From: a virus
Lineage: Duplodnaviria > Caudoviricetes
IMG/VR virus record: IMGVR_UViG_2934069824_000002
Span: 14,437 to 78,436 of that record
Reading direction: 5' to 3' (one strand)
Length of the DNA: 64,000 nucleotides
The position numbers and the translations under genes were made by a program. Shown piece by piece: positions 14,061-64,000 of this stretch; position 1 is the first letter of the stretch; each line of letters begins with the position of its first letter. The notes under the pieces were generated by a model. That model saw only the letters and a program-made list of their open reading frames with translations, did not search any database and was not told the DNA's origin.

Positions 14061-16685
14061 TCACCCCGTCTGAACGCAGACCCGATCGCCCTCCACGAAC
14101 ACCCAGTCGCGGGTCTCCGCGACCTCGACGGACCGCCGCAGGAACGGCCTGTCGCTGCTCCTGAGTCGACGGTTCAGCTCGCCGAACGTGATCCCGCCGA
14201 CGGCCGACGAGTGCTTCTTCACGAGGCGGGCGATGCGCTCCAGGCTGCGGTCCGTGTCGTTCTTCGCCTGGTGCGAGCGGAGCTCCTGCGCGACCTTGGC
14301 GTCCTCCTCGCGCCGCCGGGCAGCCTCGGCCTCGCGGGCCGCTCGCTGGATCAGCGCGGCACGGACGGTGCACGAGGACTTCCAGACGATCTCGGCGAGT
14401 TCCCAGTCCTGCTCGGTCGCTTCGACGCGGCCGCCGTCGAGCAGCGCCAGGAGGGCGGTGATCTTCACCTTCATCAGGTTGGCGTGGCCGTCGAGCTCGT
14501 CGATCTCCAGCTCGCCGCGGTTCCGCGCGACGTGCTCGGCCCAGAGCATCCGCCGGATGCGCTCGGGGAGCACGATGTTGAGGTCCTCCATCGGCTGGAC
14601 GGAGGCGGGGTTGACCGGCAGTGGGCCGGGTGAGACGGGCGGCTCGTCGGGGATCGACGGGTCGGCGGCCCAGGCCCAGAGGAAGCGCTGCGGGGTGCCA
14701 GTGCTGGCGTCGGCGATGACCGGCATAGCGGTTGACGGCTGGAAGCCGACGACCATGCCGAGGCTGTAGGAGCCCGCCGCGACGTACCGGGTGCGCTCCT
14801 CAGAGGCGTTGGTCTGGCCGAGGGTCTCGCCGATCGCGGCACGGCGCAGCGTCTCGCCCAGCACGCTGCCGGCGCGCTCCGCCAAGCTGGCCAGGGTCTG
14901 GCCTTCGTCGACGTAGAAGTAGGCGTTGTGCCGGACCTGCTTCCGGACCTTCCGTGTGACGGGGTCGCCCTTGAGCGGGCCCTTGGCGTGGATCTCGCCC
15001 GTCTCCTCGTCGACCGTTCCCATGAACGCCTCGGCGATGCCCTCCCCGGACCCGATGGGGAGTCCGTCGCGGAACTCCGGGTCGATCGGGGGGAGCAGCG
15101 ACCGGGCGACCTTCGTGCCGATGGACTTGCCACCGCCGGATGCGGCGACGACCGCGACGAACATGTTCAGCGACGCGCGGCCGCCGATGCCCGACACGGC
15201 GGCGATGCGGTGCGACACCATCGCCGACATACGCGCGAGGAGCGAGAAGAACAGCACGTCGCCGCTGGAGCCTTCGGCGTGGGCGGCCAGGCGGATGTGC
15301 TGGAACACCGGGCGGGCGTTCCAGAACTCCTCGGGCAGGAGCCCGGGGTGGGCCTTCGGGTCCGGCTGGTCGTCGCCTGGGCGCGCGTGTTCCGGCTCCG
15401 GCTCGACCAGCTGGCCCGCCCCCCAGAGGTCTGCGGGCGGCGGCGGGCTGGAGCGTTCGGCGCGCGGCGGGCGGCACTGCTGCTTCACCCGCGCCAGGAC
15501 GGGGGAGGGCAGCGACCGCGCGGGCGAGGAGCACGGCTGGTCGTAGGCCGCGCGCAGCACGTCCCGCGCAGCCTCGCGCTCGTCCCCGTTGTAGTGCAGA
15601 TGCGCCCACAGGGTGGGGACGGTCAGCTTCCGCCCGGACGGCTGCTGACCGACCGGGAGCCCGGACCGCTCGGACCAGTTCACCGCGACGTGGTCGTCGC
15701 ACATGAGGCTGTGGTCGCTCTCGGCAGAGCCCTCCGCGCTGGCCGGGCGCAGCCACTTCTCGCGGCCGCCGGACGTGCCGCGGTACGTCCACCCGGCGGG
15801 CTCCAGGACGTCCCGGAAGGTGAGCATGGACGCGAGGATGTCGAAGACGCTGCTGCCGCCCGTGCTCGTCGCGCGGGCGCGCGGCGGCGGGACAGCGGGG
15901 CGCCCGTGCCGGGCGTCCTGGCGGGCGCGCTTCTCTGCGGCGGCCTTCTCCAGTGCCGCGCGTGCTGTGGGCTCCAGGGCGGCGGCCTGCTCGTGCATCA
16001 GTTGCAAGGGCACGGGATGTCCGCTGCCGGGCACGCTGCCCGTCGGCCGGGCCTGTCCGCCCTTCCTGTTGACCGTGCCGGGCACGCGCATCAGCCGGTC
16101 GAGGTTGCCGACCTGGGTGTCCCAGGTGCAGCCGTGCCCGTAGGCGGCGGCGCCGAGGATGGTTTGCACCGAGGCGGTCATCGCCTCGACGCGGGCCCGG
16201 TCTTCGGCGGTCTCCATGACGTACGGGGTTTCGAGCATCCAGACGGGGTTGAGGCCGCCGCCGGACAGCACCCAGCCGGTGGGCTCGGGGAGTCCGGACG
16301 ACGCCACGATCTGGCGGACGTGGTCGGCGTCGTCGGGGTGGGGCATCTCGTCGGGGCCGGGCTTGTGGCCCAGGCCGCCGAAGTCTCCGTCCGCCCAGAT
16401 GAAGGTGACGGCGTGCGCGAGGTCCTTCCCGCCGCGCCCCTTCTCGGGGTGCTCTCGCAGGGTGGTGACCTGCGCGTAGATTCCCTTCGGGTCGCGGGTG
16501 TCGAGCTGGAGGACGTAGTCGACGGCGGCGGTGATGCCCGCCTCGTTGGTGGTGAAGCGGCGACCGGCCCAGTCGGCGTCGCTGCAGATGCTGAGCAGCC
16601 CGGGGACGTTCTGGTACTGGAAGGCCAGGGACCGGTGGACCAGGTCCTTGTCGACGACGGCCGGGGTGGGGAGCGGTTCGGTCAC
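14061..16685 (-). CDS. Primase-helicase replication protein
   Basis: GTG at 16685; primase motifs WADGD, SGGG, RLMRVPGTVNRK; P-loop SGGGKS and Walker B YVDE. Confidence 0.85.
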   Translation of the reverse strand: MTEPLPTPAVVDKDLVHRSLAFQYQNVPGLLSICSDADWAGRRFTTNEAGITAAVDYVLQLDTRDPKGIYAQVTTLREHPEKGRGGKDLAHAVTFIWADGDFGGLGHKPGPDEMPHPDDADHVRQIVASSGLPEPTGWVLSGGGLNPVWMLETPYVMETAEDRARVEAMTASVQTILGAAAYGHGCTWDTQVGNLDRLMRVPGTVNRKGGQARPTGSVPGSGHPVPLQLMHEQAAALEPTARAALEKAAAEKRARQDARHGRPAVPPPRARATSTGGSSVFDILASMLTFRDVLEPAGWTYRGTSGGREKWLRPASAEGSAESDHSLMCDDHVAVNWSERSGLPVGQQPSGRKLTVPTLWAHLHYNGDEREAARDVLRAAYDQPCSSPARSLPSPVLARVKQQCRPPRAERSSPPPPADLWGAGQLVEPEPEHARPGDDQPDPKAHPGLLPEEFWNARPVFQHIRLAAHAEGSSGDVLFFSLLARMSAMVSHRIAAVSGIGGRASLNMFVAVVAASGGGKSIGTKVARSLLPPIDPEFRDGLPIGSGEGIAEAFMGTVDEETGEIHAKGPLKGDPVTRKVRKQVRHNAYFYVDEGQTLASLAERAGSVLGETLRRAAIGETLGQTNASEERTRYVAAGSYSLGMVVGFQPSTAMPVIADASTGTPQRFLWAWAADPSIPDEPPVSPGPLPVNPASVQPMEDLNIVLPERIRRMLWAEHVARNRGELEIDELDGHANLMKVKITALLALLDGGRVEATEQDWELAEIVWKSSCTVRAALIQRAAREAEAARRREEDAKVAQELRSHQAKNDTDRSLERIARLVKKHSSAVGGITFGELNRRLRSSDRPFLRRSVEVAETRDWVFVEGDRVCVQTG

Positions 16686-20059: not shown

Positions 20060-21559
20060 TTACCGCTTCCAGCGCGTCTCGACTGCTTCGTAGTCGAAGT
20101 ACCCGCCGTCCGGCATACGGCCCTGGCGCGGCGGGCGCAGCGTCACCTCCAGCAGGGCCTGCAGCACCTTGCGCTGCCGTCCCAGCTCGCACGCTTCCCA
20201 CGCCGCCCGCACGTCCTTCACGCCGACCAGGCCGACGAGCGGGTCCTTCACCGCAGCCCGGGCCAGCTGCGCCGTCACGCCCTCCAGCTGGGCGCGCGCG
20301 ACGTCGGAGCCTTCGGTGAACTGGGCCATGCTGATCTGCCCGGACCCGAACATCGCCGCGAGGTCGGTCAGCCGCCGGCGGATGGTCTCGCTCTCGACCT
20401 GGAGCTTGCCCACGTTGATGCCGTCCGGGGTGGGCCCCAGCAGGTCGACCGCGTCCGGCTTCGACAGCCGCTCGACGAGCAGGTCCTGGATGTACGCGTC
20501 GAGGACCGCCGCGTTCCGGCCGCCGCCGTGGTTGTCCTGGCACCGGTAGCTGGGCGCCCCGGATCCGCCGACCTTGGTGTTGCGCACGGTGGTCTTGCAC
20601 CCCAGTCGCCCGCACTTGTAGATCAGGGAGCCGAACCACTTCACCTCGGAGCCGGTGGTGGTCACCCGGTTCGGGTCCGTGAGGATCGCGACGACCGCCC
20701 GGAACTTCGGCTCGGGCACTGCCGGCTCCCACAGGCCGCGGCCGATCTCCTCGCCCTGGTAGATGGCGATGCCTGCGTTGCGCGGCCGGAGCAGCAGGTC
20801 CCGTGCCGCGTTGTGCGTGATCGGTCGGCCCGTGGTGGACAGCAGCCCCTTGGCGGCGAGCCACCGCGCCCAGCCCTTCACCGACCCGGCGGCCAGGATC
20901 ATGTCCGTGCCGGCTTCGAGGGCTGCTCCCTCCTCGGGGACCAGCTTGGTCATGTCGAGCACGGGCACGTCGATCTCCTCGTCGGTGCCCTTGATCGCCT
21001 TCTTACGGGTCTCTCCGGTGGGCATGCCCCACCCGAACGGCCTAAGCCCGCCGCCGAACTTTCCGGCCTTCGCCTTCTGGAGTCGGGCACGGGCCACGCG
21101 CTCGGCCTTGTGCTCGGACTCGTGCCGGGCGACGGCTCCGTGGATGCGGGCGGTCATCCGGCCGGACGATGTGGAGAGGTCGAGCTCACCGGCCTGGCAG
21201 GTGTGGGTGTCGACGCCGCGCCGCTGGCTGAGGTCGATGTACTCCTCCAGCTCGGTGGGGGAGCGGTGCAGGCGGTCGGTGTGCCAGGCGACGACGACGG
21301 TGGCGGTGCCGAGTTCGAGGTCGGCGAGCATCCGGCGGTAGTCCTTGCGGGGCTTCCCGCTGTACGCGGAGAGGTCGTTGTCGACGTACACCTCGACGAC
21401 TTCCCAGCCGCGTGACTCGGCGAGCGCCTCGCAGTCTTCGCGCTGCCGGTCGACGCCGAGGTGCGCGCCGGTCCGGTCCTGGCTGATGCGGACGTAGATG
21501 ACGGCGCGGGGCGTCCCGCCGTTGGCGACGGAGACGGCGCTTCGCAGGCGGCGGCTCAT
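20060..21559 (-). CDS. Large serine integrase A
   Basis: YVRIS catalytic motif, DRLHRS, recombinase domain, CxxxxC...C Zn ribbon; start MSRRL. Confidence 0.95.
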   Translation of the reverse strand: MSRRLRSAVSVANGGTPRAVIYVRISQDRTGAHLGVDRQREDCEALAESRGWEVVEVYVDNDLSAYSGKPRKDYRRMLADLELGTATVVVAWHTDRLHRSPTELEEYIDLSQRRGVDTHTCQAGELDLSTSSGRMTARIHGAVARHESEHKAERVARARLQKAKAGKFGGGLRPFGWGMPTGETRKKAIKGTDEEIDVPVLDMTKLVPEEGAALEAGTDMILAAGSVKGWARWLAAKGLLSTTGRPITHNAARDLLLRPRNAGIAIYQGEEIGRGLWEPAVPEPKFRAVVAILTDPNRVTTTGSEVKWFGSLIYKCGRLGCKTTVRNTKVGGSGAPSYRCQDNHGGGRNAAVLDAYIQDLLVERLSKPDAVDLLGPTPDGINVGKLQVESETIRRRLTDLAAMFGSGQISMAQFTEGSDVARAQLEGVTAQLARAAVKDPLVGLVGVKDVRAAWEACELGRQRKVLQALLEVTLRPPRQGRMPDGGYFDYEAVETRWKR

Positions 21560-21903
21560 GAGCGGTCGCCGTGGTCCGGGGCCTGGCACTGCCGCAGGGC
21601 GAAGTCCCAGTACCAGGAACTGCCGTTGACGTAGAGGCGCGTCCAGCCCGCGCGGATGCGGTCCACAGGGAGGCCGGGCATCTGGACCTCGACGTGCCGC
21701 CCGTCGGTCATTCCGAGGTCGAAGGCGAACCTGCCCTCGCCGTAGTCGGCGAGGGGGGTGCGGTCGATCGAGGCCACGGCCAGGCCGTGCTCCTTGGCCA
21801 GGTCGGCGATGAACGTCTGGATGTTCTCGGCGGCCTGCTGCTCGGTCGCCCCTTCGACGGGGCCGGAGCCCGGGTTGATGAACGTCATCTTCCGAGTGTC
21901 CAT
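21556..21903 (-). CDS. Hypothetical protein coupled to the integrase
   Basis: ATGA overlap with the integrase start; protein-like sequence (RLYVNGSSWYW). Confidence 0.6.
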   Translation of the reverse strand: MDTRKMTFINPGSGPVEGATEQQAAENIQTFIADLAKEHGLAVASIDRTPLADYGEGRFAFDLGMTDGRHVEVQMPGLPVDRIRAGWTRLYVNGSSWYWDFALRQCQAPDHGDRS

Positions 21904-21930
21904 CACTAAGGGTGTCTCTGCCAGAGTTTC

Positions 21931-22172
21931 GGGAAGACGACGCTCCTCGCCAGCCTGCTGGGCGCGGTCGGGGTGAACGAGCGGATCGTGCTCGCCGAGG
22001 ACTCCGCCGAACTGCGGCCGGACCATCCGCATGTGGTCCGCCTGGAGTCCCGTCCCGCCAATCAGGAGGGAGCGGGCCGGGTGACTTTGCGAGATCTGGT
22101 GCGGCAGGCACTGCGCATGCGGCCCGACCGGCTGGTGGTCGGAGAGGTGCGGGGCGCTGAAGTCACCCAGCT
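21931..22172 (+). pseudogene. tadA: Internal fragment of host TadA/CpaF-family ATPase flanked by two att junctions
   Basis: [11 protein letters not shown]...[12 protein letters not shown]...[23 protein letters not shown]; similarity stops abruptly on both sides. Confidence 0.9.
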
Positions 22173-22245
22173 GACTGGTAAGAAACCACCAATACAAGCG
22201 CTACGTGATTACCCCTGGTCAGAGGCCTTCCTGCCTCAAGCATGA

Positions 22246-22277
22246 CTGAACCCCGGCGCCGTCGCGCCGGGGTTCAG
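22246..22277. terminator. 14-bp perfect stem-loop just inside prophage B
   Basis: CTGAACCCCGGCGC-CGTC-GCGCCGGGGTTCAG, directly after the TGA (22243..22245) that ends tadA read-through. Confidence 0.6.
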
Positions 22278-22496
22278 CAGCCGCTCCCCGCCCTGCCGGG
22301 GGAGGAAGAGGGGGAGGGCTGATCGGGGCCCCTCCATCAGAGGGGAGCGTCGGCGGCCCAGTCGAGTCGTCGGCGCCGACTTCACTCGAACGAGTGAGCG
22401 AATTCGACAGCTTCACCGTACACGCAGCGTGCTTGATCGGCAGATTTAAGGTCAACCCTAAAGACAAACGATCATGGCCCCGGTGAGCGTTGCCGG

Positions 22497-22736
22497 GTGT
22501 ACCACGAGCCGCTGCCTCCCGACCGCGTCCGGGCCCGGCGCCTGCAGATCGCGGACAACATCCGCGCAGCCCGCATCTACACGGGCTACACCCAGGAGGA
22601 GGCCAGCATCCGGGCAGGCATTTCGCTCGACAGCTACAACCGGATCGAGCAGGGGCACGCGTCCCCCAGGATCGACACCCTGATCAAGATTGCGGACGGC
22701 ATCGGCGTGGAGCTCGAGACCTTCGTACGCAGGTAG
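22497..22736 (+). CDS. XRE-family HTH regulator
   Basis: TQEEASIRAGISLDSYNRIEQG...TLIKIA. Confidence 0.85.
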   Translation: MYHEPLPPDRVRARRLQIADNIRAARIYTGYTQEEASIRAGISLDSYNRIEQGHASPRIDTLIKIADGIGVELETFVRR

Positions 22737-22765
22737 GCCCCCGGCCACTGCTCGGTCGGGGGCCT
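22735..22765. terminator. Hairpin between convergent genes
   Basis: aggcccccggcc...ggtcgggggcct. Confidence 0.6.
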
Positions 22766-22773
22766 GCCTGTGC

Positions 22774-23874
22774 CTACGCCCTGCTGGGCTGGACGACCAG
22801 GTGCGGATCGCGCAGCCACACCTGATGGCCGCGGGGTGTCACGGTCAGGCCGAACTGGTCGGCGTCGGGTCGGCCGGCCTCTTCGTACTCCCGCCAGGCC
22901 CGCTCGATCTCCTCCCACAGGAAGCCGGGCCCGTACTGCAGCACCTCCTCGCCGGTGGCGGCCATGACTCCCGCCCCGTCCACGCTGCTCACCCAGACCC
23001 GGGCACCGTCGGCGGTCTCGTGGCCGGAGACCCGGACACCGGGCATCCTCGCCCCGGCGTACAGAGCGAACCCGAGGTCGAGAATCCGCGCGGGGTCCAG
23101 GCCTGCGGCCCGGGCCCGACCGCTGCCCGTGATCTCGTGGTGGACCGGGCGGTGCGAGCGCATCGGCATGTACATCGCCGAGCCGCAGAACGGGCCGACT
23201 GCGGTCCCGTCGCCCTGGACGTGGAGTTGGACCAGCGCACCGGACCAGAAGTCGCGGGCGAGCGGGGCCACGATGACCCCGCCGGGCCGGACCTGCCCGA
23301 CGAGCGCGTACGGGATGTATCGCAGCGCGCACGTGGCGATGACGCGGTCGACCAAGCCCATGCCGGGGATCGCCTCCGCACCGTCGCCGACGTGGAGGTG
23401 CGGCCGGTATCCGGATCCGGCGATGGCATCGGCGGCCTGCTGCGCCAGCACGGGGTCCACCTCGACGCTGTAGACCTGCTCGTCGCCGAGCCGCTCGCTG
23501 AGCAGCGCGGCAACGTACCCGGTCCCGGTGCCGATCTCGAGGACCCGGTGACCGTCCTCGACTCCGAGGAGCCCGAGCATCCGGGCCACCATCGACGGCT
23601 GCGAGTTCGACGACGTCGCGATGCCGGGTCCGCCCACGGCCCCGTCGTCGAGCTGGGTGACTACCGGCTCGTCGCTGTTCACCAAGGCCAGCCAGTCGTC
23701 TGTCCCTACCACCGGCTCGCACCGGTCGGGGAGCTGACGCCAGATGTCCGCCGGCACGAACTGACTGCGGGGAACGGCCTCCCAGACCTGCCGCCAGCGG
23801 GCATCGAGCAGCCTGCGATCGGCGAGGTCCTGGACGAGGGCCGGGTACGTGCCGGTCTCCTGCGCCGTGCTCAC
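22774..23874 (-). CDS. PIMT-like (protein-L-isoaspartate O-methyltransferase family) RiPP methyltransferase
   Basis: TSSNSQP, VLEIGTGTGY SAM motif, C-terminal extension LWEEIE...FGLTVT...VWL; GTGA overlap with the precursor stop. Confidence 0.88.
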   Translation of the reverse strand: MSTAQETGTYPALVQDLADRRLLDARWRQVWEAVPRSQFVPADIWRQLPDRCEPVVGTDDWLALVNSDEPVVTQLDDGAVGGPGIATSSNSQPSMVARMLGLLGVEDGHRVLEIGTGTGYVAALLSERLGDEQVYSVEVDPVLAQQAADAIAGSGYRPHLHVGDGAEAIPGMGLVDRVIATCALRYIPYALVGQVRPGGVIVAPLARDFWSGALVQLHVQGDGTAVGPFCGSAMYMPMRSHRPVHHEITGSGRARAAGLDPARILDLGFALYAGARMPGVRVSGHETADGARVWVSSVDGAGVMAATGEEVLQYGPGFLWEEIERAWREYEEAGRPDADQFGLTVTPRGHQVWLRDPHLVVQPSRA

Positions 23875-24005
23875 TGGGCGCGCTTCTGCGGGCGGCTGCC
23901 GTCGGGGGACGGGGCAGGTGCCGGGTCCGGCTTCCACGGCGTGTCGGACGGCTGCCCGCCGTGCTTGCCGTCGTCGGCCTGCTGGGGCGTCTGGGGATTC
24001 GTCAT
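23871..24005 (-). CDS. 44-aa putative RiPP precursor (MTNPQTPQQADDGKHGGQPSDTPWKPDPAPAPSPDGSRPQKRAQ)
   Basis: Hand translation; translationally coupled on both sides; two Asp-Gly motifs. Confidence 0.75.
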   Translation of the reverse strand: MTNPQTPQQADDGKHGGQPSDTPWKPDPAPAPSPDGSRPQKRAQ

Positions 24006-24214
24006 CGGTCTGCCCTTCGTCCAGGACCGCCGGGTGCGGCGGCCAGGTGGTCCGCAGGGGCGACGCGCTGTCGGGCCTCACGCCACTTCCGGCCGAGCTT
24101 GGAGGCGGTGGCGCACGCCGTGCCTGCTCGGCATCCGGCGCAGGTCCTGGTGTGGCGCAGCCACTTCCTGTACGCCGCGTCGCCCGGTGCGGTCTGTAAG
24201 GTCTCGGCGCTCAT
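24002..24214 (-). CDS. Small HxxxCxxC-C protein
   Basis: YRKWLRHTRTCAGC....C; AGGGG RBS. Confidence 0.65.
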   Translation of the reverse strand: MSAETLQTAPGDAAYRKWLRHTRTCAGCRAGTACATASKLGRKWREARQRVAPADHLAAAPGGPGRRADR

Positions 24215-24360
24215 GGGTGCTCGCCCCCTACGGGATGGGTTGCGGCACCGGTCGATCCTGGCGGGGGGACCGGTGCCGCTGGTTACTGGGATCACGCTAG
24301 GTGCCCGCGCGATCACACCCCAGGGGCGAACCCCACCACTCTAAGCGGCCGCACCCCACC

Positions 24361-24385
24361 GAGGTAGGGCGCTACGTCCTACCTC
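24361..24385. promoter_or_regulatory. Palindrome upstream of the methyltransferase operon
   Basis: GAGGTAGG-gcgctacgt-CCTACCTC. Confidence 0.5.
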
Positions 24386-25589
24386 ACAGGGCCGGGTCAA
24401 CGCCGAGCCGCGACGCGAGGCCGCGAAGCGAGGAGTTCCGCCGGCGCTCGGCCTCGAGCATCTCCCGCACCGTCGCCGCCGCCCCGGCCTGGAACCGGAT
24501 CCACTCCGGCTGATCGGTCTCCACCTCCAGGAGCAGCGTCAGCGCACCCTCGTTGTCGCCGGTCTGGTAACGGGCCTGCGCCACGTCCACCCGGTACGAC
24601 GCCGAGTGCACCGGACGGCTGATGTTGCCGAGGTGGACATCGGCGGCGGCGTCCAGCGCAACGTTCGGCATGCCGTCGGTGCCAGCCAGGGCTGCATTCA
24701 CCTTCTGCGTCAGCACGTCGGTCACGCTGAACGCGGTCCCGTACGCGCGGACCGGGCCGGACTGCACGGCAGCACCCTCGGCCAACCCGAGCAGGTAGAG
24801 CGCCTCCTCGTGCTGGTCGGCACGTGCGTACGGCGTCGCCGCTGCGATCAAGAGATTTCCGTAGACGGCGAGCTGGTCCGCTGTCGCACCGCGCCGCCGC
24901 GGCTCGAGCTGGTCTGCCTTCCGTTCCGCGATGTCCCGCGCCTGCTCCCACCGGCCCTGACGCAAAAGGACCCAGGACAGCGTCGATACGCCCATGCCCT
25001 CAAGCAGCGGATCGGACGCCCGCGCGGCGGCAGACAGTTGCTTCTCCACCGCGGTGTACGCCCAGTCGGGATGACCGGCCTGGGTAGAGAGGGACGCGGC
25101 CAGCTGGTAGGCGAGGGCGAGACTCCGCCACACGCTCTCGGTGTCGTGCTGGCGCGCGGTGGCGCGGCCGTCCCGGAGCAGGCCCGGCAGTACGCCAGCG
25201 AGCTCGGAGTAGCCACCGGTCCAGTACGTGTCGGTGGCGGCCGTCACCTGCCGCGCCCACTCGGCAGGGCTCGGCGGGTCCTCGAGGTCCTCGTCGCCCA
25301 GAATGCCGGGCAGTGACCCGGGATCCTGGATCGCGTCGCGCATGGCCAGGAGGCCGCCGTCAGGGGGAAGTTCGCTGGTCACGGTGGGCTGTCCTACGAG
25401 GCGCTCGAGCTGGACGTCCAGCGCCCGCGCGATACTGCGCAGAGTGTTGATCCGCGCGGCCTGCCGTCGGTTCTGCTCAAGCTTCCGGATGGTGTCGATG
25501 GACACTCCGGACCGGTCGGCCAGCGTTTCCTGGGTGATGTCGCGGAACTCTCGCAACGCGCGGATGCGGTCGCCAATGGACGTATTCAT
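24384..25589 (-). CDS. XRE-HTH plus TPR-like transcriptional regulator
   Basis: N-terminal TQETLADRSGVSIDTIRKLEQ followed by ~300 aa of helical repeats. Confidence 0.88.
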   Translation of the reverse strand: MNTSIGDRIRALREFRDITQETLADRSGVSIDTIRKLEQNRRQAARINTLRSIARALDVQLERLVGQPTVTSELPPDGGLLAMRDAIQDPGSLPGILGDEDLEDPPSPAEWARQVTAATDTYWTGGYSELAGVLPGLLRDGRATARQHDTESVWRSLALAYQLAASLSTQAGHPDWAYTAVEKQLSAAARASDPLLEGMGVSTLSWVLLRQGRWEQARDIAERKADQLEPRRRGATADQLAVYGNLLIAAATPYARADQHEEALYLLGLAEGAAVQSGPVRAYGTAFSVTDVLTQKVNAALAGTDGMPNVALDAAADVHLGNISRPVHSASYRVDVAQARYQTGDNEGALTLLLEVETDQPEWIRFQAGAAATVREMLEAERRRNSSLRGLASRLGVDPAL

Positions 25590-25634
25590 GTGGACCCCCG
25601 CCAGAAGGTTGAATCCACGGTACTCCGAAACGCA

Positions 25635-25670
25635 GAAATGCCCCCCACCGCCGAAGCGGTGGGGGCGTTC
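25635..25670 (-). terminator. Intrinsic terminator ending the late operon
   Basis: GCCCCCACCGC-TTCG-GCGGTGGGGGGC-ATTTC on the minus strand. Confidence 0.75.
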
Positions 25671-26306
25671 TCACGGGCGGCGGCGGGTGGGGTCCAGGGC
25701 GAGGGCGAGCGGGCTGGGTGTGCTGGCGGGTTCCTCCGGCTGCGACGGTGTGGTCCGCCGGCAGACGAGGGCGTCCGGGTCGGTGGGCGGCGGCTGCAGG
25801 GTGTACCCGTCCGGGCAGGTCTGACCATCGGCACCATCGCGCCCGTCAACGCCGTCCTTCCCGTCCTTGCCGACCCCGTCCTTCCCGGCGGGCCCTGGCG
25901 GGCCAGCAGGCCCCGCGGGGCCCGTCGGGCCGGGGACCACCGAGTCGGCCCCGGCCTGACCGGCCGCGCCGGACGGGCCGGGGATCGGCGTCGCCGCTGC
26001 CCCGTCGCGTCCGTCTTCCCCAACTCCGGCCTTTCCCGGAGGACCGGACGAGCCCGGCGGACCGGGTGGGCCGGACGGGCCGACGAGGCTCTCGCCCGGC
26101 TCGCCGCGCGTCCCCGGCGGCCCGGCGACGGGGGACGCCCCGAGGCGCTCGACCTGCTGCGCCAGCTGGTCCCGGGCGAGGTTCGCCGCTCGGAGGTCGG
26201 AGGCGAGGTCCTGCACCGTGAGGATCGCCGCCCCGGCGAGCAGCGCGCCCAGGAGCGTGAGCAGGTTGCCGAGCCAGGGCCGGGCGTGCTCGCGTCGGTG
26301 CGTCAT
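25671..26306 (-). CDS. Membrane-anchored collagen-like protein of the lysis cassette
   Basis: N-terminal TM, short coiled coil, Gly-X-Y repeats, CPDGY...C. Confidence 0.8.
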   Translation of the reverse strand: MTHRREHARPWLGNLLTLLGALLAGAAILTVQDLASDLRAANLARDQLAQQVERLGASPVAGPPGTRGEPGESLVGPSGPPGPPGSSGPPGKAGVGEDGRDGAAATPIPGPSGAAGQAGADSVVPGPTGPAGPAGPPGPAGKDGVGKDGKDGVDGRDGADGQTCPDGYTLQPPPTDPDALVCRRTTPSQPEEPASTPSPLALALDPTRRRP

Positions 26307-26596
26307 GCTCCGGCCCCCTTCACGGTCATGGCGAGGTACGGGAGCAGCGCGACCACGACGGTGATGACGACGCCGATCATCCACCGGCGGGTCGCGATGA
26401 GCTTGTCGGTGTCCTTCTCCCGTTGCGTCTCCAGCGCGGTCACGCGGGAGGCGATCTGCTCTTTCTCGATCGTGTAGACGTCGCGCGGGACGACGGCGTC
26501 GAGCCGCGCGTTCAGGTTCCCCAGGTCCTCGCGTACGTCGTCGCGCAGGGACTGGATGAGCCGCCCGAGCTCGCCGTTCGACGGCTCATCAGCCAT
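26303..26596 (-). CDS. Coiled-coil protein with C-terminal TM (lysis cassette)
   Basis: MADEPSNGELGRL...RRWMIGVVITVVVALL. Confidence 0.75.
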   Translation of the reverse strand: MADEPSNGELGRLIQSLRDDVREDLGNLNARLDAVVPRDVYTIEKEQIASRVTALETQREKDTDKLIATRRWMIGVVITVVVALLPYLAMTVKGAGA

Positions 26597-26612: not shown

Positions 26613-26831
26613 TCAGATGCTCGCCGGGTCCTTGGCGGCGGGCAGCGTGGACGCGGTGCCCTTGCGGCCGAGCCGCCCGGCCACCCACGACTTAGCCGAC
26701 GCGGCGAGCAGCGCGACCGGGGCCGCCCACCACACCGGCACATCAGCCAGCTCGACGACGGCCAGGCCGAGCGCGGCCTCCGCCCCCGTCCACGCGGACC
26801 GCTCGACGAGGTCCAGCAACAGTCTCTGCAT
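26613..26831 (-). CDS. Holin (r1t-like)
   Basis: DLVERSAWT, two TM segments; directly after the endolysin. Confidence 0.8.
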   Translation of the reverse strand: MQRLLLDLVERSAWTGAEAALGLAVVELADVPVWWAAPVALLAASAKSWVAGRLGRKGTASTLPAAKDPASI

Positions 26832-26870
26832 GATCAATCTCCTAGGGGTTGGTGAAGCGAGTTGGTGGGG

Positions 26871-27746
26871 TCAGACGTTGGGGACCTTGAGCCGGTCCCA
26901 CGAGCCCTTGCCGGGGATGCCGTCGGCGGCCGCGCCGGAGTAGCCGCACTTGCGCTGCCAGGCGGCGTACGACTTCCGGTCCGCCTCCGACCACCTCGGG
27001 CCCGGGCCGACCGCGTACCGGCCGCAGCCCTCGGCGGCCAGGCGGCGGCCCATCGCGGTGACGACCGGGCTGTTGCGGCCGGCCTTGAAGAACGCCGCCC
27101 CGGGGAACGGCTCGTACCGCGGCTTCGCCGGCGGCTCGGCCGGGCCGTCGGCGGAGCTCCCGAGCCGCTTGCCGATCCGCGTGCGCATCGAGTTCATGGT
27201 GAATCCGCGCGGATCGACCTTGCCCGGCTGCCACTCCAGGTGGCCGAGCACGGACCGGGGCCCCCAGCCGTGCGCCCGGCAGACGGCGGCGGCCGCGCGC
27301 TCGATCGCGAGCAGCTGCTCGGCCGGCCACGGGTCCTCACCGTCGCCGAGGTTCACCGCTTCGAACCCGTAGAAGTGGCGGTTCCCGTCGGTGTTGGCCT
27401 CGTTGTCCGGCGGGAGCTCCCTCTCGGCGATGACGGCCTGGAGGACGTCGTCGTCGCCGGACCCGGCGTGGTTCGCGCGCCCGTGGCCGACGAGGTACAC
27501 GGTGCCGTCCTTGGCGATGACGCCGTGGCAGAGCGGCCCGGGCAGGGCGGAGTGGCCGTTGTAGCAGAGCTCCACGGAAGAGGCGGTTCCCGACGTCACG
27601 GTGTGGTGGATCATCACGCCGTGCATCGGGCCCACCGGACCCTTGTGGTTGCGGCTGTTGGTGCGCCAGCTCCGGTGTTCGACGACGTGGAGGCCCTCGT
27701 CGCGGAGGGCTTTCAGAAGTTTGTCGGCGGAGAGGAATGTGGCCAT
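26871..27746 (-). CDS. Endolysin: N-acetylmuramoyl-L-alanine amidase plus peptidoglycan-binding domain
   Basis: IHHT, RANHAG, GHLEW...KVDP motifs; C-terminal ADGIPG..SW. Confidence 0.93.
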   Translation of the reverse strand: MATFLSADKLLKALRDEGLHVVEHRSWRTNSRNHKGPVGPMHGVMIHHTVTSGTASSVELCYNGHSALPGPLCHGVIAKDGTVYLVGHGRANHAGSGDDDVLQAVIAERELPPDNEANTDGNRHFYGFEAVNLGDGEDPWPAEQLLAIERAAAAVCRAHGWGPRSVLGHLEWQPGKVDPRGFTMNSMRTRIGKRLGSSADGPAEPPAKPRYEPFPGAAFFKAGRNSPVVTAMGRRLAAEGCGRYAVGPGPRWSEADRKSYAAWQRKCGYSGAAADGIPGKGSWDRLKVPNV

Positions 27747-62037: not shown

Positions 62038-62505
62038 ATGAGCAAGACGATCAGTGGCAGCAGGACGCCCGTGCGAATCGCGTTCGAGATCGTCCCGGAG
62101 AGCTCGCTGCCGCCGGACAAGGCGGTCGCCCTGGACGAGGTTGACGGGCTGATCACCGCCCGCATCGGCGAGGGACACATCACGCCCGAGCTCCGTGCAG
62201 AACTCGAGGAGCTCCACCGCACCGTGACTCAGCAGGAGCGGTGGGTGCAGACCTCGCCGGAGCTGGACCCGCACCGCCTCGAACAGCCGGCGGAAGGGCT
62301 CGGGATTGCCCACGTGGCGTGGGAGCGGGTCGCCGCCGGGGTGCTCCCGCGCACCGTGCTCGCGGCCCCGGTGGAGCGCGACCGCATGCTGGTCTGGCTC
62401 CTCCACGAGGATCACGCCTCGGCGCAGCTCTGCGCCGAGATATCCGAGTACGGGCGCCGGATCGCCGGAGACGGACTCTGGGAGCAGCGATGGCCTACGG
62501 CTTAG
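62038..62505 (+). CDS. Hypothetical protein between repressor and integrase
   Basis: Protein-like ORF with an apparent internal duplication ending W.Q. Confidence 0.65.
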   Translation: MSKTISGSRTPVRIAFEIVPESSLPPDKAVALDEVDGLITARIGEGHITPELRAELEELHRTVTQQERWVQTSPELDPHRLEQPAEGLGIAHVAWERVAAGVLPRTVLAAPVERDRMLVWLLHEDHASAQLCAEISEYGRRIAGDGLWEQRWPTA

Positions 62506-64000
62506 CCTTATCCGCCTCCTGGCCGGGGGCGGCATCCGTACGGGCCCGGACGATACGAATCGCATTCGTATCGAATCCGGGCCCTCTGCGTTGGGTCGGC
62601 AGGATGACCACGCCGAAGAGGATCCGCACGGTGGTGGCCCGGATGCTGATGGGCGTGGCCTCCCACTGTTCGGGAGTGATGCCGATCATGCGGCCGAGGA
62701 GGCGGCGCTCGGCGGTCGCCCCGATCTCGGCTCGAGCGGTCGCGATCCGCTTCTCGAGCGACGCGAGACCGACCAGGGCGAGAGCCGTGTCGATCTCGGG
62801 GTTGTCGGCCAGTGACTCGATCTGCTGACGTACCGTGTCCCGGCGTCGCTCGAGCTTGACCAACTCGTCGGCCAGGTTAGGGTTCTCGGCCCGCGCGGAG
62901 AGTTCGGTCAGCAGCTCGGGGCTGTTCAGCAGGCGTATCGCTCGACCGCTGACGTAGGCCTCGGTGTGCTCAAGGTTCCGCCCGACCTTGCGGCAGGTGT
63001 CGCAGTAGTAGATGCGCGAAGTCTTCCTGTTCCTGCCCCCGGTCGGCTTGGTCGACATCCACGACCCGCAGTTCCAGCACTGCGCCCCGCCCGTTCCGGA
63101 CAGCAGGTACTTGCGTTCCCGACCGGCGTGGGGGCGCAGCTCGGCGCCGGCCGCGTAGTACCGGTGGAGGCTCTCCCACATCTCCCGCGGGAAGATCCCG
63201 TCCCATGCCGCATCGTAGAGCTGGCCGTCCCGCTCGATCAGCCCGGCGGACCGCGGGGCCAGGAACAAGTTCCGCACGGTCTTGGTCTGCCAGGGGTTGC
63301 CCTCGGTCGTGGTGCACAGAGTGTCCATCCACCGGACGACGCCAGCCTGCGGCTGGCCAGCGAGTACCCGCTCGCCAGCCTCGAACAGGATGCGGGCCTC
63401 CTCGGGTACCTGCTGGCTCATGTCGTAGACGGGGACCTCGACCTCCACACCGTCAATCAGCTTTGTCCGGGTGCCGATCTGCACGCCGTACCCGAAGGCG
63501 CGGTGACCGCCGCTCTGCGTGAGGCCGGCCTCCAGTCGGGCGTCCAGGGCGCGCTTCACCCGGCGGCTGATGTTGTCCGACTCCCGGCAGGCCTGGGCTG
63601 CCTCGATGCGCAGGATGAACCTGTCGTCGGGTGAATCGAGGTCGCGCGTGCCGGACGGGCTGGCGATCCGCATGCCCCGGCTGTCCGAGATCCCAATGAG
63701 CGTCTCGAGGTCGAAGGGCTGCCTGATCAACCTGTCGCCGTGGTAGACGATCACGGCGTCGATCTCGCCCGCCTCGATGCAGCGCAGCATGCGGTCCCAC
63801 TGCGGCCGTGAACGGTTCCTCTGCCAGGCGCTGCGCGAGTTGTCCGGGAAGATGTGCGCCTCGCTGACGCCCCAGCCCAGGCGGTCCGCCAGGTCCCGGC
63901 AGTCGCCTTCCTGGCGCTCCACCTTCTCGAGCGATCCGTCCGGCGCGTACGACAGTCGGCAGTAGATGCCGGCCCTCTGAGGCAGTCGCTGATTCCGCAT
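62495..64000 (-). CDS. Large serine integrase B
   Basis: IYCRLS catalytic motif, DRLIR, CWNCG...CDTC Zn ribbon. Confidence 0.95.
   Translation of the reverse strand: MRNQRLPQRAGIYCRLSYAPDGSLEKVERQEGDCRDLADRLGWGVSEAHIFPDNSRSAWQRNRSRPQWDRMLRCIEAGEIDAVIVYHGDRLIRQPFDLETLIGISDSRGMRIASPSGTRDLDSPDDRFILRIEAAQACRESDNISRRVKRALDARLEAGLTQSGGHRAFGYGVQIGTRTKLIDGVEVEVPVYDMSQQVPEEARILFEAGERVLAGQPQAGVVRWMDTLCTTTEGNPWQTKTVRNLFLAPRSAGLIERDGQLYDAAWDGIFPREMWESLHRYYAAGAELRPHAGRERKYLLSGTGGAQCWNCGSWMSTKPTGGRNRKTSRIYYCDTCRKVGRNLEHTEAYVSGRAIRLLNSPELLTELSARAENPNLADELVKLERRRDTVRQQIESLADNPEIDTALALVGLASLEKRIATARAEIGATAERRLLGRMIGITPEQWEATPISIRATTVRILFGVVILPTQRRGPGFDTNAIRIVRARTDAAPGQEADKAKP

Follow-up and report, generated by a model that had tools for sequence, protein, structure and literature searches.

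Imiditides are peptides made by ribosomes and modified after translation (RiPPs) defined by a homologue of protein L-isoaspartate O-methyltransferase (PIMT) of 300–450 aa with a C-terminal recognition domain, and by a precursor encoded upstream on the same strand as an unannotated, Asp-containing open reading frame (ORF) that is 30–75 aa long; no further conserved genes were reported for their clusters (10.1101/2023.04.07.536058). In the pair from Nonomuraea maritima, 8 M urea does not separate the 46-aa NmaA from the 373-aa NmaM, turnover is low, and the enzymes of the class carry a specific 41-aa C-terminal motif that was published as a logo figure only (10.1101/2023.04.07.536058). Precursors of the NmaA type are strongly cationic according to the accessible text of a 2026 review (PMC13001092), which gives the biological role of imiditides and type I pamtides as unknown. 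The precursors of type I pamtides are approximately 45 aa long and rich in Gly, Pro and Asp, and the available part of the same source describes PIMT homologues that adjoin large Pro/Gly-rich proteins, and many that have no precursor (PMC10787088). Here we describe a cassette encoding a pair of this kind in a 64,000-nt stretch of DNA (hereafter the window), which covers positions 14,437 to 78,436 of the 78,436-bp IMG/VR provirus record IMGVR_UViG_2934069824_000002. We consider it likely that the cassette is imiditide/type I pamtide accessory cargo of a temperate Streptomyces phage.

The peptide and methyltransferase genes

The cassette and its immediate surroundings contain the following features, with coordinates given in the window:

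24384..25589, minus strand: XRE-type helix-turn-helix (HTH) regulator, 401 aa (Pfam HTH_3 and HTH_31, phrog_5823)
24361..24385, minus strand: hairpin GAGGTAGG-ACGTAGCGC-CCTACCTC, with an 8-bp stem (GAGGTAGG/CCTACCTC) and a 9-nt loop, overlapping the TGA of the regulator
24215..24383, minus strand: conserved structured leader, 169 nt, between the regulator and the mini-protein
24002..24214, minus strand: mini-protein, 70 aa, with the motif H21-x3-C25-x2-C28-x5-C34
23871..24005, minus strand: putative precursor peptide MTNPQTPQQADDGKHGGQPSDTPWKPDPAPAPSPDGSRPQKRAQ, 44 aa, with D12-G13 and D35-G36
22774..23874, minus strand: PIMT-like O-methyltransferase, 366 aa, with a GTG start and a C-terminal extension
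22497..22736, plus strand: HTH-only XRE protein, 79 aa, convergent with the methyltransferase gene (Pfam HTH_3, 2.6e-11)

The ATG of the peptide overlaps the stop codon of the mini-protein (ATGA) and the GTG of the methyltransferase overlaps the stop codon of the peptide (GTGA). These three overlapping genes, the hairpin and both Asp-Gly sites of the peptide had been picked out in an initial annotation of the DNA, and all of them are present as described there. The same annotation had proposed the peptide as a gene absent from the ORF track. The frame with the highest G+C content at third codon positions (GC3), followed in a sliding window, changes three times along the cassette, each time at a gene border, and over the peptide stretch GC3 is 0.91 in the peptide frame versus 0.63 in the methyltransferase frame. 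The methyltransferase frame is by chance open upstream to 24210, across the peptide; the 435-aa ORF at 22774..24081 was rejected as an over-extended methyltransferase, the real start being the GTG at 23874.

Relatives were drawn from 28 Streptomyces genome loci with the enzyme at 50–88% identity, five weaker matches from outside the family having been set aside; three IMG/VR contigs were obtained as well. By tblastn, each of the genome loci (28/28) has a peptide homologue on the same strand just 5′ of the enzyme gene, and in all 28 the two genes overlap or adjoin. Because of the switch in GC3 frame and the homologue upstream of the enzyme in every locus, we judge on sequence grounds that the 44-aa peptide is a real gene, as had been proposed.

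Twenty three intact peptides were aligned. Left outside the alignment were L010 (the same as L009), L017, which has a GTG start, and L011, L019, L027, L029, L030 and L032, which the motif rule missed. The consensus of the aligned peptides is ADDGKHGGxPSDKPWTPPPxPPSPDGSGP, in which positions K14, H15, G17, P23, W24, P30, P32, S33, P34, G36 and P39 are invariant and D35 is kept in 22/23 peptides, within an S-P-D-G motif; a GRHAG variant occurs in L027 and L030. Substitutions are biased towards the third position: in the 29-codon core of eight close relatives, 6 sites vary at codon position 1, 9 at position 2 and 20 at position 3. Pro makes up 22.7% of the window peptide, Asp 11.4% (5 Asp) and Gly 9.1%; it contains no Cys and no hydrophobic segment, the highest hydropathy over nine residues being -0.74. 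In public annotation the peptide has been called in no more than 8 protein clusters, each time under the name 'hypothetical protein'. Decayed copies were also seen: the enzyme has an early stop in L007, in L011 it is split and the N-terminus of the peptide is disrupted, and in L024 the regulator is split. The peptides of L011 and L032 look degenerate, a deletion in L032 fusing the peptide start to the enzyme.

The enzyme matches Pfam PCMT (4.2e-25) over residues 89–240, with the S-adenosylmethionine (SAM)-binding motif GxGxG present as GTGTG at residue 115 and with 126 aa C-terminal to the PCMT domain. It also matches phrog_13505 over its full length (2.1e-88), and its best sequence matches in the PDB are canonical PIMTs. 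At least 2256 homologues were found at E≤1e-10 among 8000 candidates scored, and the 120 best listed are mostly 366–367 aa long. A further full-length match (7.7e-89) is to TIGR04188, a RiPP-associated model for the methyltransferase of ATP-grasp peptide systems (graspetides). Because its score of 298.6 bits is below the curated cut-off of 380, the profile comparison makes the enzyme a relative, not a member, of the graspetide methyltransferases.

Set against the published definitions, the enzyme, at 366 aa, lies within the range of 300–450 aa and its 126-aa C-terminal part within that of 110–180 aa, and it has the PIMT-homologous domain together with the SAM-binding GxGxG. For the precursor the definitions expect an Asp-containing ORF of 30–75 aa on the same strand, no more than 500 bp upstream, and the peptide is 44 aa long with 5 Asp and overlaps the enzyme start. 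It is likewise the Gly/Pro/Asp-rich peptide of about 45 aa, with a conserved Asp near Pro/Gly, that is described for type I pamtides (S-P-D-G in 22/23). The pair therefore fits an imiditide/type I pamtide by every criterion that can be tested on sequence, the 41-aa motif and the modification itself lying outside this comparison, and the initial call of an imiditide/pamtide-like peptide with a stand-alone PIMT homologue is borne out by the PCMT domain, the similarity to TIGR04188 and these definitions. For the same reason the chemistry is of a known kind, and there is nothing new in the chemistry itself. No primary modification enzyme of another RiPP class is encoded in the interval from the lysis genes to the neighbouring integrase, where the ORFs are those of the regulator, mini-protein, peptide, enzyme and 79-aa XRE protein and one of 115 aa, although no dedicated search for ATP-grasp or lasso enzymes was made.

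The closest described system is NmaA/NmaM. As in the window, an unannotated precursor of about 45 aa is encoded directly 5′ of a PIMT homologue that is about 370 aa long and has a C-terminal recognition domain, the substrate is linear, and Gly, His, Pro and Lys residues of the precursor are conserved. NmaA/NmaM differs in consisting of two genes and in having been described with no mention of phages, whereas the pair in the window is accompanied by a regulator and a Cys/His mini-protein and is carried on a phage. SpaA/SpaM of Streptomyces sparsogenes likewise combines a stand-alone PIMT-type enzyme with a precursor that is about 45 aa long, has a high content of Pro, Gly and Asp and conserves an Asp next to Pro/Gly, according to the accessible text of PMC10787088. 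There it is reported to pass through +14 and -18 Da intermediates toward isoaspartate; the likeness is one of description, as the SpaA sequence is given only in a figure. Cysimiditides (type II pamtides) share the PIMT-type enzyme and an Asp-Gly site, and the available text on them reports HTH regulators close by in 19/56 clusters (10.1101/2024.10.02.616296). However, their precursor itself is described there as carrying two CxxCxGxG zinc motifs, whereas the precursor in the window has no Cys and the Cys/His motif sits on a separate protein without a conserved Asp-Gly. Two CxxCxGxG motifs flanking the Asp would be expected of a cysimiditide/type II pamtide precursor, but the peptide has no Cys, and the motif of the mini-protein is H-x3-C-x2-C-x5-C and not CxxCxGxG.

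Carriage on phages

Sequence comparisons place the pair on phages, both in genome relatives and in isolated phages. A tblastn search of 50,697 phage records gave 12 matching records; in 8 of these, from five phages, the match covers approximately 90% of the enzyme. The enzyme-bearing isolates are the Streptomyces phages PapayaSalad, Ididsumtinwong, Bioscum, Austintatious and Alderaan of the genus Austintatiousvirus, whose enzyme is 39% identical (E 2e-63) and aligns from residue 1. PapayaSalad and Alderaan both encode, directly 5′ of the enzyme, a peptide of about 48 aa (MSGKHGG...SSDGSGP), with the lysis genes on one side of the pair and the integrase/regulator region on the other. The Austintatiousvirus cassette thus resembles that of the window in its homologous enzyme and in an upstream peptide with GKHGG and DGSGP; PapayaSalad has in addition a 407-aa regulator of the same, divergent family. 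However, the middle of the peptide is Gly/Ser-rich and not Pro-rich and there is no Asp before GKHGG. Moreover, the cassette runs opposite to the lysis genes, and the other small proteins upstream are different ones, with no mini-protein of the H/C3 type. The records themselves annotate only an 'O-methyltransferase' and a 'hypothetical protein'. Alderaan, which the available part of PMC9239200 terms virulent, keeps the peptide–enzyme pair without this regulator; no integrase was seen in the stretch of it that was viewed, and in its annotation the peptide gene is extended upstream to an ORF of 69 aa.

In the relative with an enzyme 81% identical to that of the window (G001), the same five genes are found 733 bp inward of a 25-nt repeat. 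A 42,537-bp contig begins and ends with this repeat, and the chromosome contains it twice, with a spacing of 34.8 kb. Searches with the enzyme gave four matches in this relative, of which two are identical and the others are at 76% and 41% identity. In two IMG/VR proviruses (L004 and L005) the same genes follow the lysis genes, and scans of IMG/VR with clade-specific patterns found the enzyme on at least four other viral contigs.

The 28 genome loci lie in more than one context. Seven have a phage endolysin within 10 kb. In seven others (L008, L015, L016, L023, L025, L028 and L032) the pair lies 2–3 kb downstream of tRNA-His, beside adpA and orn, and these resemble minimal islands at a hot spot for integration. 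In the islands of L023, L025 and L028 the pair is accompanied by the regulator only, with a small Cys protein as well in L025 and L028.

As judged from the ORF map and from self-comparison, the 78-kb record consists of two related, collinear prophages in tandem, here called A and B. The gene order of each, on the minus strand, is integrase, early genes, terminase, portal, capsid, tails, lysis and cargo, and the cassette is cargo of prophage B, between its lysis genes and its end proximal to the attachment (att) site. The landmarks are as follows:

62495..64000+, minus strand: prophage B serine integrase, cut by the end of the record (Pfam Resolvase, 2.5e-22)
26871..27746, minus strand: prophage B amidase endolysin, with matches in Streptomyces phages
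26613..26837, minus strand: prophage B holin (phrog_443, 1.7e-6)
21904..22381, no strand: expected junction zone of prophages A and B
21556..21903: ORF abutting integrase A
20060..21559, minus strand: prophage A large serine integrase, the last gene of prophage A (Pfam Resolvase, 4.3e-31, and Recombinase)

The initial annotation had placed the cassette at a prophage end. That position stands; the adjoining integrase belongs to the second prophage, A. Homology to the phage contig of relative G001 stops at window position 22381. PADLOC returned only generic methyltransferase-domain and HTH matches and no defence system. The cargo of prophage A comprises an HTH_31/DUF5753 protein, a DUF6879 protein and an 86-aa protein. 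The lysin, tail and head genes of the two prophages share 74–90% nucleotide identity, each prophage having its own serine integrase and different cargo. A collagen-like (Gly-X-Y) gene of tail-fibre type (25671..26384, minus strand; phrog_18350, 1.9e-23) separates the holin region from the regulator.

The regulator, leader and mini-protein

The regulator matches Pfam HTH_3 (6e-10) and HTH_31 (3e-9) and, over its full length, phrog_5823 (1.3e-111). Its initial description as an XRE protein with tetratricopeptide repeats (TPRs) is supported by Pfam for the HTH part, whereas for the TPR part Pfam gives only a sub-threshold match (TPR_4, E 0.003) and the support comes from the predicted fold and from structure searches. 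The AlphaFold2 model (mean predicted local distance difference test score, pLDDT, 85.7) is all-helical, with the HTH followed by a TPR-like superhelix of approximately 300 aa. Foldseek returned generic TPRs; PlcR ranked eighth and ComR further down. In VIA-align, where Z scores below about 13 are common among helical repeats, the matches were APPBP2 (Z 21.1), MalT domain III (17.7), the Rap protein of phage phi105 with its peptide (16.8), NprR–NprX (15.4), RapI (13.2) and PlcR (12.9).

A profile of the family detects a full-length member directly upstream of the pair, in the same orientation, in 13/28 genome loci; five of these 13 were in the seed of the profile and one is split. Distant members are approximately 25–27% identical to the regulator of the window. 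Because the linkage persists across very different contexts, the minimal tRNA-His islands included, this distribution argues that the regulator belongs to the peptide–enzyme module. Full-length members of the family also occur in 55 phage records, among them R4, phiHau3 and Janus. The methyltransferase is present in 8 records, so that at least 47 have the regulator without the enzyme; in L045 and L047 the regulator is followed by other cargo, without the peptide. In R4 the phrog_5823-type gp52 adjoins the integrase and is followed by two other small genes, and the R4 repressor has been placed between the lysis and early genes (PMC10276819). A search of both prophages for stoperator-like repeats, such as those of an R4-type repressor, found no exact 12–14-mer more than four times, those that recur being GC-rich; repeats with mismatches were not searched. 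The 79-aa XRE protein matches the HTH part of phrog_5823, is 35–43% identical to the N-terminus of the regulators of relatives, and is kept at the same spot in L004, L009/L010 and L025.

Between the regulator and the mini-protein, the stem of the hairpin is invariant in six relatives. In two of the six (L005 and L045) the 9-nt loop is the exact reverse complement with the stem unchanged, a small loop flip. A 621-nt stretch that includes the leader is approximately 90% identical among the window, L004 and L005, and a TAGAGT hexamer in the leader is invariant in all six sequences. The leader probably holds the promoter or operator of the cassette; simple promoter and terminator scans returned 0 sites. 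As RNA, the leader folds at -110 kcal/mol (z -4.4 versus shuffles), and its consensus fold shows compensatory change in only 4/59 pairs. With so little covariation we make no claim for an RNA element, and Rfam gave no match at E≤1 in 22300..25800.

The mini-protein, searched with its first 49 residues, belongs to a family of 36 cluster representatives at E≤0.001 (P0261–P0296), mostly 41–60 aa long, in which Y15, H21, C28, C34 and W44 never vary and C25 hardly does. AlphaFold2 predicts a helical hairpin (pLDDT 86–95 at residues 11–40) with four likely metal ligands at the hairpin turn and a disordered tail. The tail varies freely in every frame and ends on the start codon of the peptide, and the GAAGGG upstream of that codon is perfectly conserved. 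The protein has no match in Pfam, NCBIfam, PHROG or PADLOC and none in Foldseek at E≤0.001, and a protein-atlas search returned only unnamed actinomycete clusters, at 0.89–0.90. Zinc anti-sigma factors of the ZAS type carry HxxxCxxC within an anti-sigma domain of about 80–90 aa. The mini-protein has the HxxxCxxC, but its conserved part is only about 40 aa long, Pfam gives nothing at E≤0.1 and there is no structural match at E≤0.001. Some members of the family are fused to a second small module (VYEV...CxCPxC), which is found upstream of the peptide elsewhere. Of the 35 loci examined, 19 have one or other module no more than 2.5 kb upstream, and none of the libraries gives a name to either.

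Proposed action and competing explanations

From these genes, whose reality and family membership are borne out above, we infer a scheme for the modification, its site, the role of the regulator and the biological function. The peptide would be translated by coupling to the upstream mini-protein gene. By analogy with the characterised family, the PIMT-like enzyme would then bind the linear peptide and methylate one Asp side chain with SAM, and the amide of the following Gly would attack the ester to give an aspartimide (-18 Da), possibly opening to isoaspartate. The favoured site is D35, in S-P-D-G-S, with D12, in D-G-K-H-G-G, as a second candidate; D35 is preferred because S-P-D-G-S is nearly invariant and because the peptide of the isolated phages keeps D-G-S-G-P without an Asp before GKHGG. 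The phrog_5823 HTH/TPR regulator is taken as a putative transcriptional controller of the cassette. No gene large enough for a transporter appears in the ORF map from the lysis genes to the neighbouring integrase, and the peptide lacks a hydrophobic segment, in agreement with the earlier remark that neither signal peptide nor exporter is visible. With neither an export signal nor a transporter, the product would most likely act within the phage-carrying or infected cell.

Several observations weigh against modified phage cargo of this type. In relative L022 a Gly replaces D35. NmaA is modified at Asp28-His29, whereas the conserved candidates here are Asp-Gly sites, so that our call of the site is a guess. 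With a pI of 6.5 the peptide is near neutral, whereas precursors of the NmaA type are strongly cationic, and the enzyme scores under the TIGR04188 cut-off. Lastly, no att repeat of prophage B was found by self-BLAST or in 21904..22381. For serine integrases, att repeats are not expected to show.

Part of this evidence can be read in other ways. If the peptide, modified or not, were the ligand of the adjacent regulator and so set transcription of the phage or cassette, in control of lysis–lysogeny or immunity, the locus would resemble RRNPP/arbitrium systems (PDB 8rte, 4gpk and 3u3w), with which it shares an HTH/TPR regulator beside a small peptide gene on a phage. The initial annotation had suggested such a signalling role, and the fold and the matches to RRNPP members (Z 12.9–16.8, with PlcR and ComR in Foldseek) agree with it, as does the regulator directly upstream in 13/28 loci, in minimal tRNA-His islands and in PapayaSalad. 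On the other side, generic TPRs (APPBP2, Z 21.1; MalT, 17.7) match the regulator as well or better, the regulator is in 55 phage records versus 8 for the enzyme and is without the peptide in L045 and L047, and 15/28 genome loci and Alderaan have the pair without this regulator. In contrast to arbitrium, the peptide has no secretion signal and is predicted to be enzyme-modified, the regulator often lacks a peptide, and the host is an actinomycete. Moreover, the peptide core is nearly invariant and the regulator strongly divergent, the opposite of the co-diversification of a receptor and its peptide. We therefore regard this explanation as unlikely, and a signalling role for the peptide–regulator pair is speculative; peptide sensing stays so because at least 47 regulator-bearing phage records have no methyltransferase.

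It has also to be considered that the real target of the enzyme is another phage or host protein, with the peptide as a tight-binding regulator or decoy. The tight binding of NmaA to NmaM in 8 M urea and the low turnover (10.1101/2023.04.07.536058) would suit this, as would the PIMT homologues that lie near large Pro/Gly-rich proteins or have no precursor (in the accessible text of PMC10787088), and the retention of the pair by Alderaan, called virulent in the available part of PMC9239200, fits a role in infection. We nevertheless find it very unlikely, given peptide and enzyme genes joined in 28/28 loci, a conserved Asp-Gly site, and two homologous pairs shown to yield modified peptide (10.1101/2023.04.07.536058 and, as far as its text is available, PMC10787088). 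Highly improbable, in our estimate, is a cassette that is a host or island remnant caught between the two tandem prophages and not phage DNA. The junction zone at 21904..22381 does lack a recognisable att repeat, and non-phage contexts are common among relatives (tRNA-His islands, 7/28). However, homology to the att-bounded phage of relative G001 spans the whole cassette to 22381, regulator and enzyme each match a PHROG family over their full length, the genomes of isolated virions have a homologous pair at the same map position, and in the proviruses L004 and L005 the same genes follow the lysis genes. Barely conceivable is a 44-aa ORF that is untranslated, with the methyltransferase starting at GTG 24081 (435 aa). 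Its frame is open back to 24210, but GC3 over the peptide favours the peptide frame (0.91 versus 0.63), the listed enzyme homologues are mostly 366–367 aa long, the phage homologue aligns from residue 1, and the peptide is conserved with a bias of substitutions towards the third position. Taken together, imiditide/type I pamtide cargo of a temperate Streptomyces phage is the reading that we prefer.

Phages go unmentioned in the main texts, so far as available, of the papers on imiditides, cysimiditides and pamtides and in the 2026 review (10.1101/2023.04.07.536058; 10.1101/2024.10.02.616296; PMC10787088; PMC13001092). A literature search found no paper joining RiPP, prophage and isoaspartyl methyltransferase, and a preprint on phage-borne gene clusters does not mention a methyltransferase. 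Carriage by phages, cultured ones included, and the recurrent regulator and mini-protein were thus not found in print; supplementary cluster lists may include the family, and this peptide family may be among the 1183 precursors in the pamtide supplements (PMC10787088).

Because an HTH/TPR regulator and a Cys/His mini-protein recur beside the pair, these data suggest a functional unit larger than the two genes published. We think it quite unlikely, but worth stating, that temperate actinophages use an aspartimide/isoaspartate peptide as an intracellular signal or timer that is read by the phrog_5823 regulator, with the mini-protein, taken as a zinc protein, as a third partner, and that decides immunity, induction or the exclusion of rival phages. 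If true, this would be an export-free actinomycete counterpart of arbitrium and the first biological role for imiditides. More generally, the status of the pair as phage cargo recasts the role of imiditides as a phage–host or phage–phage question, and the carriers include cultured phages growing on the laboratory strain Streptomyces venezuelae, which would offer a direct test system.

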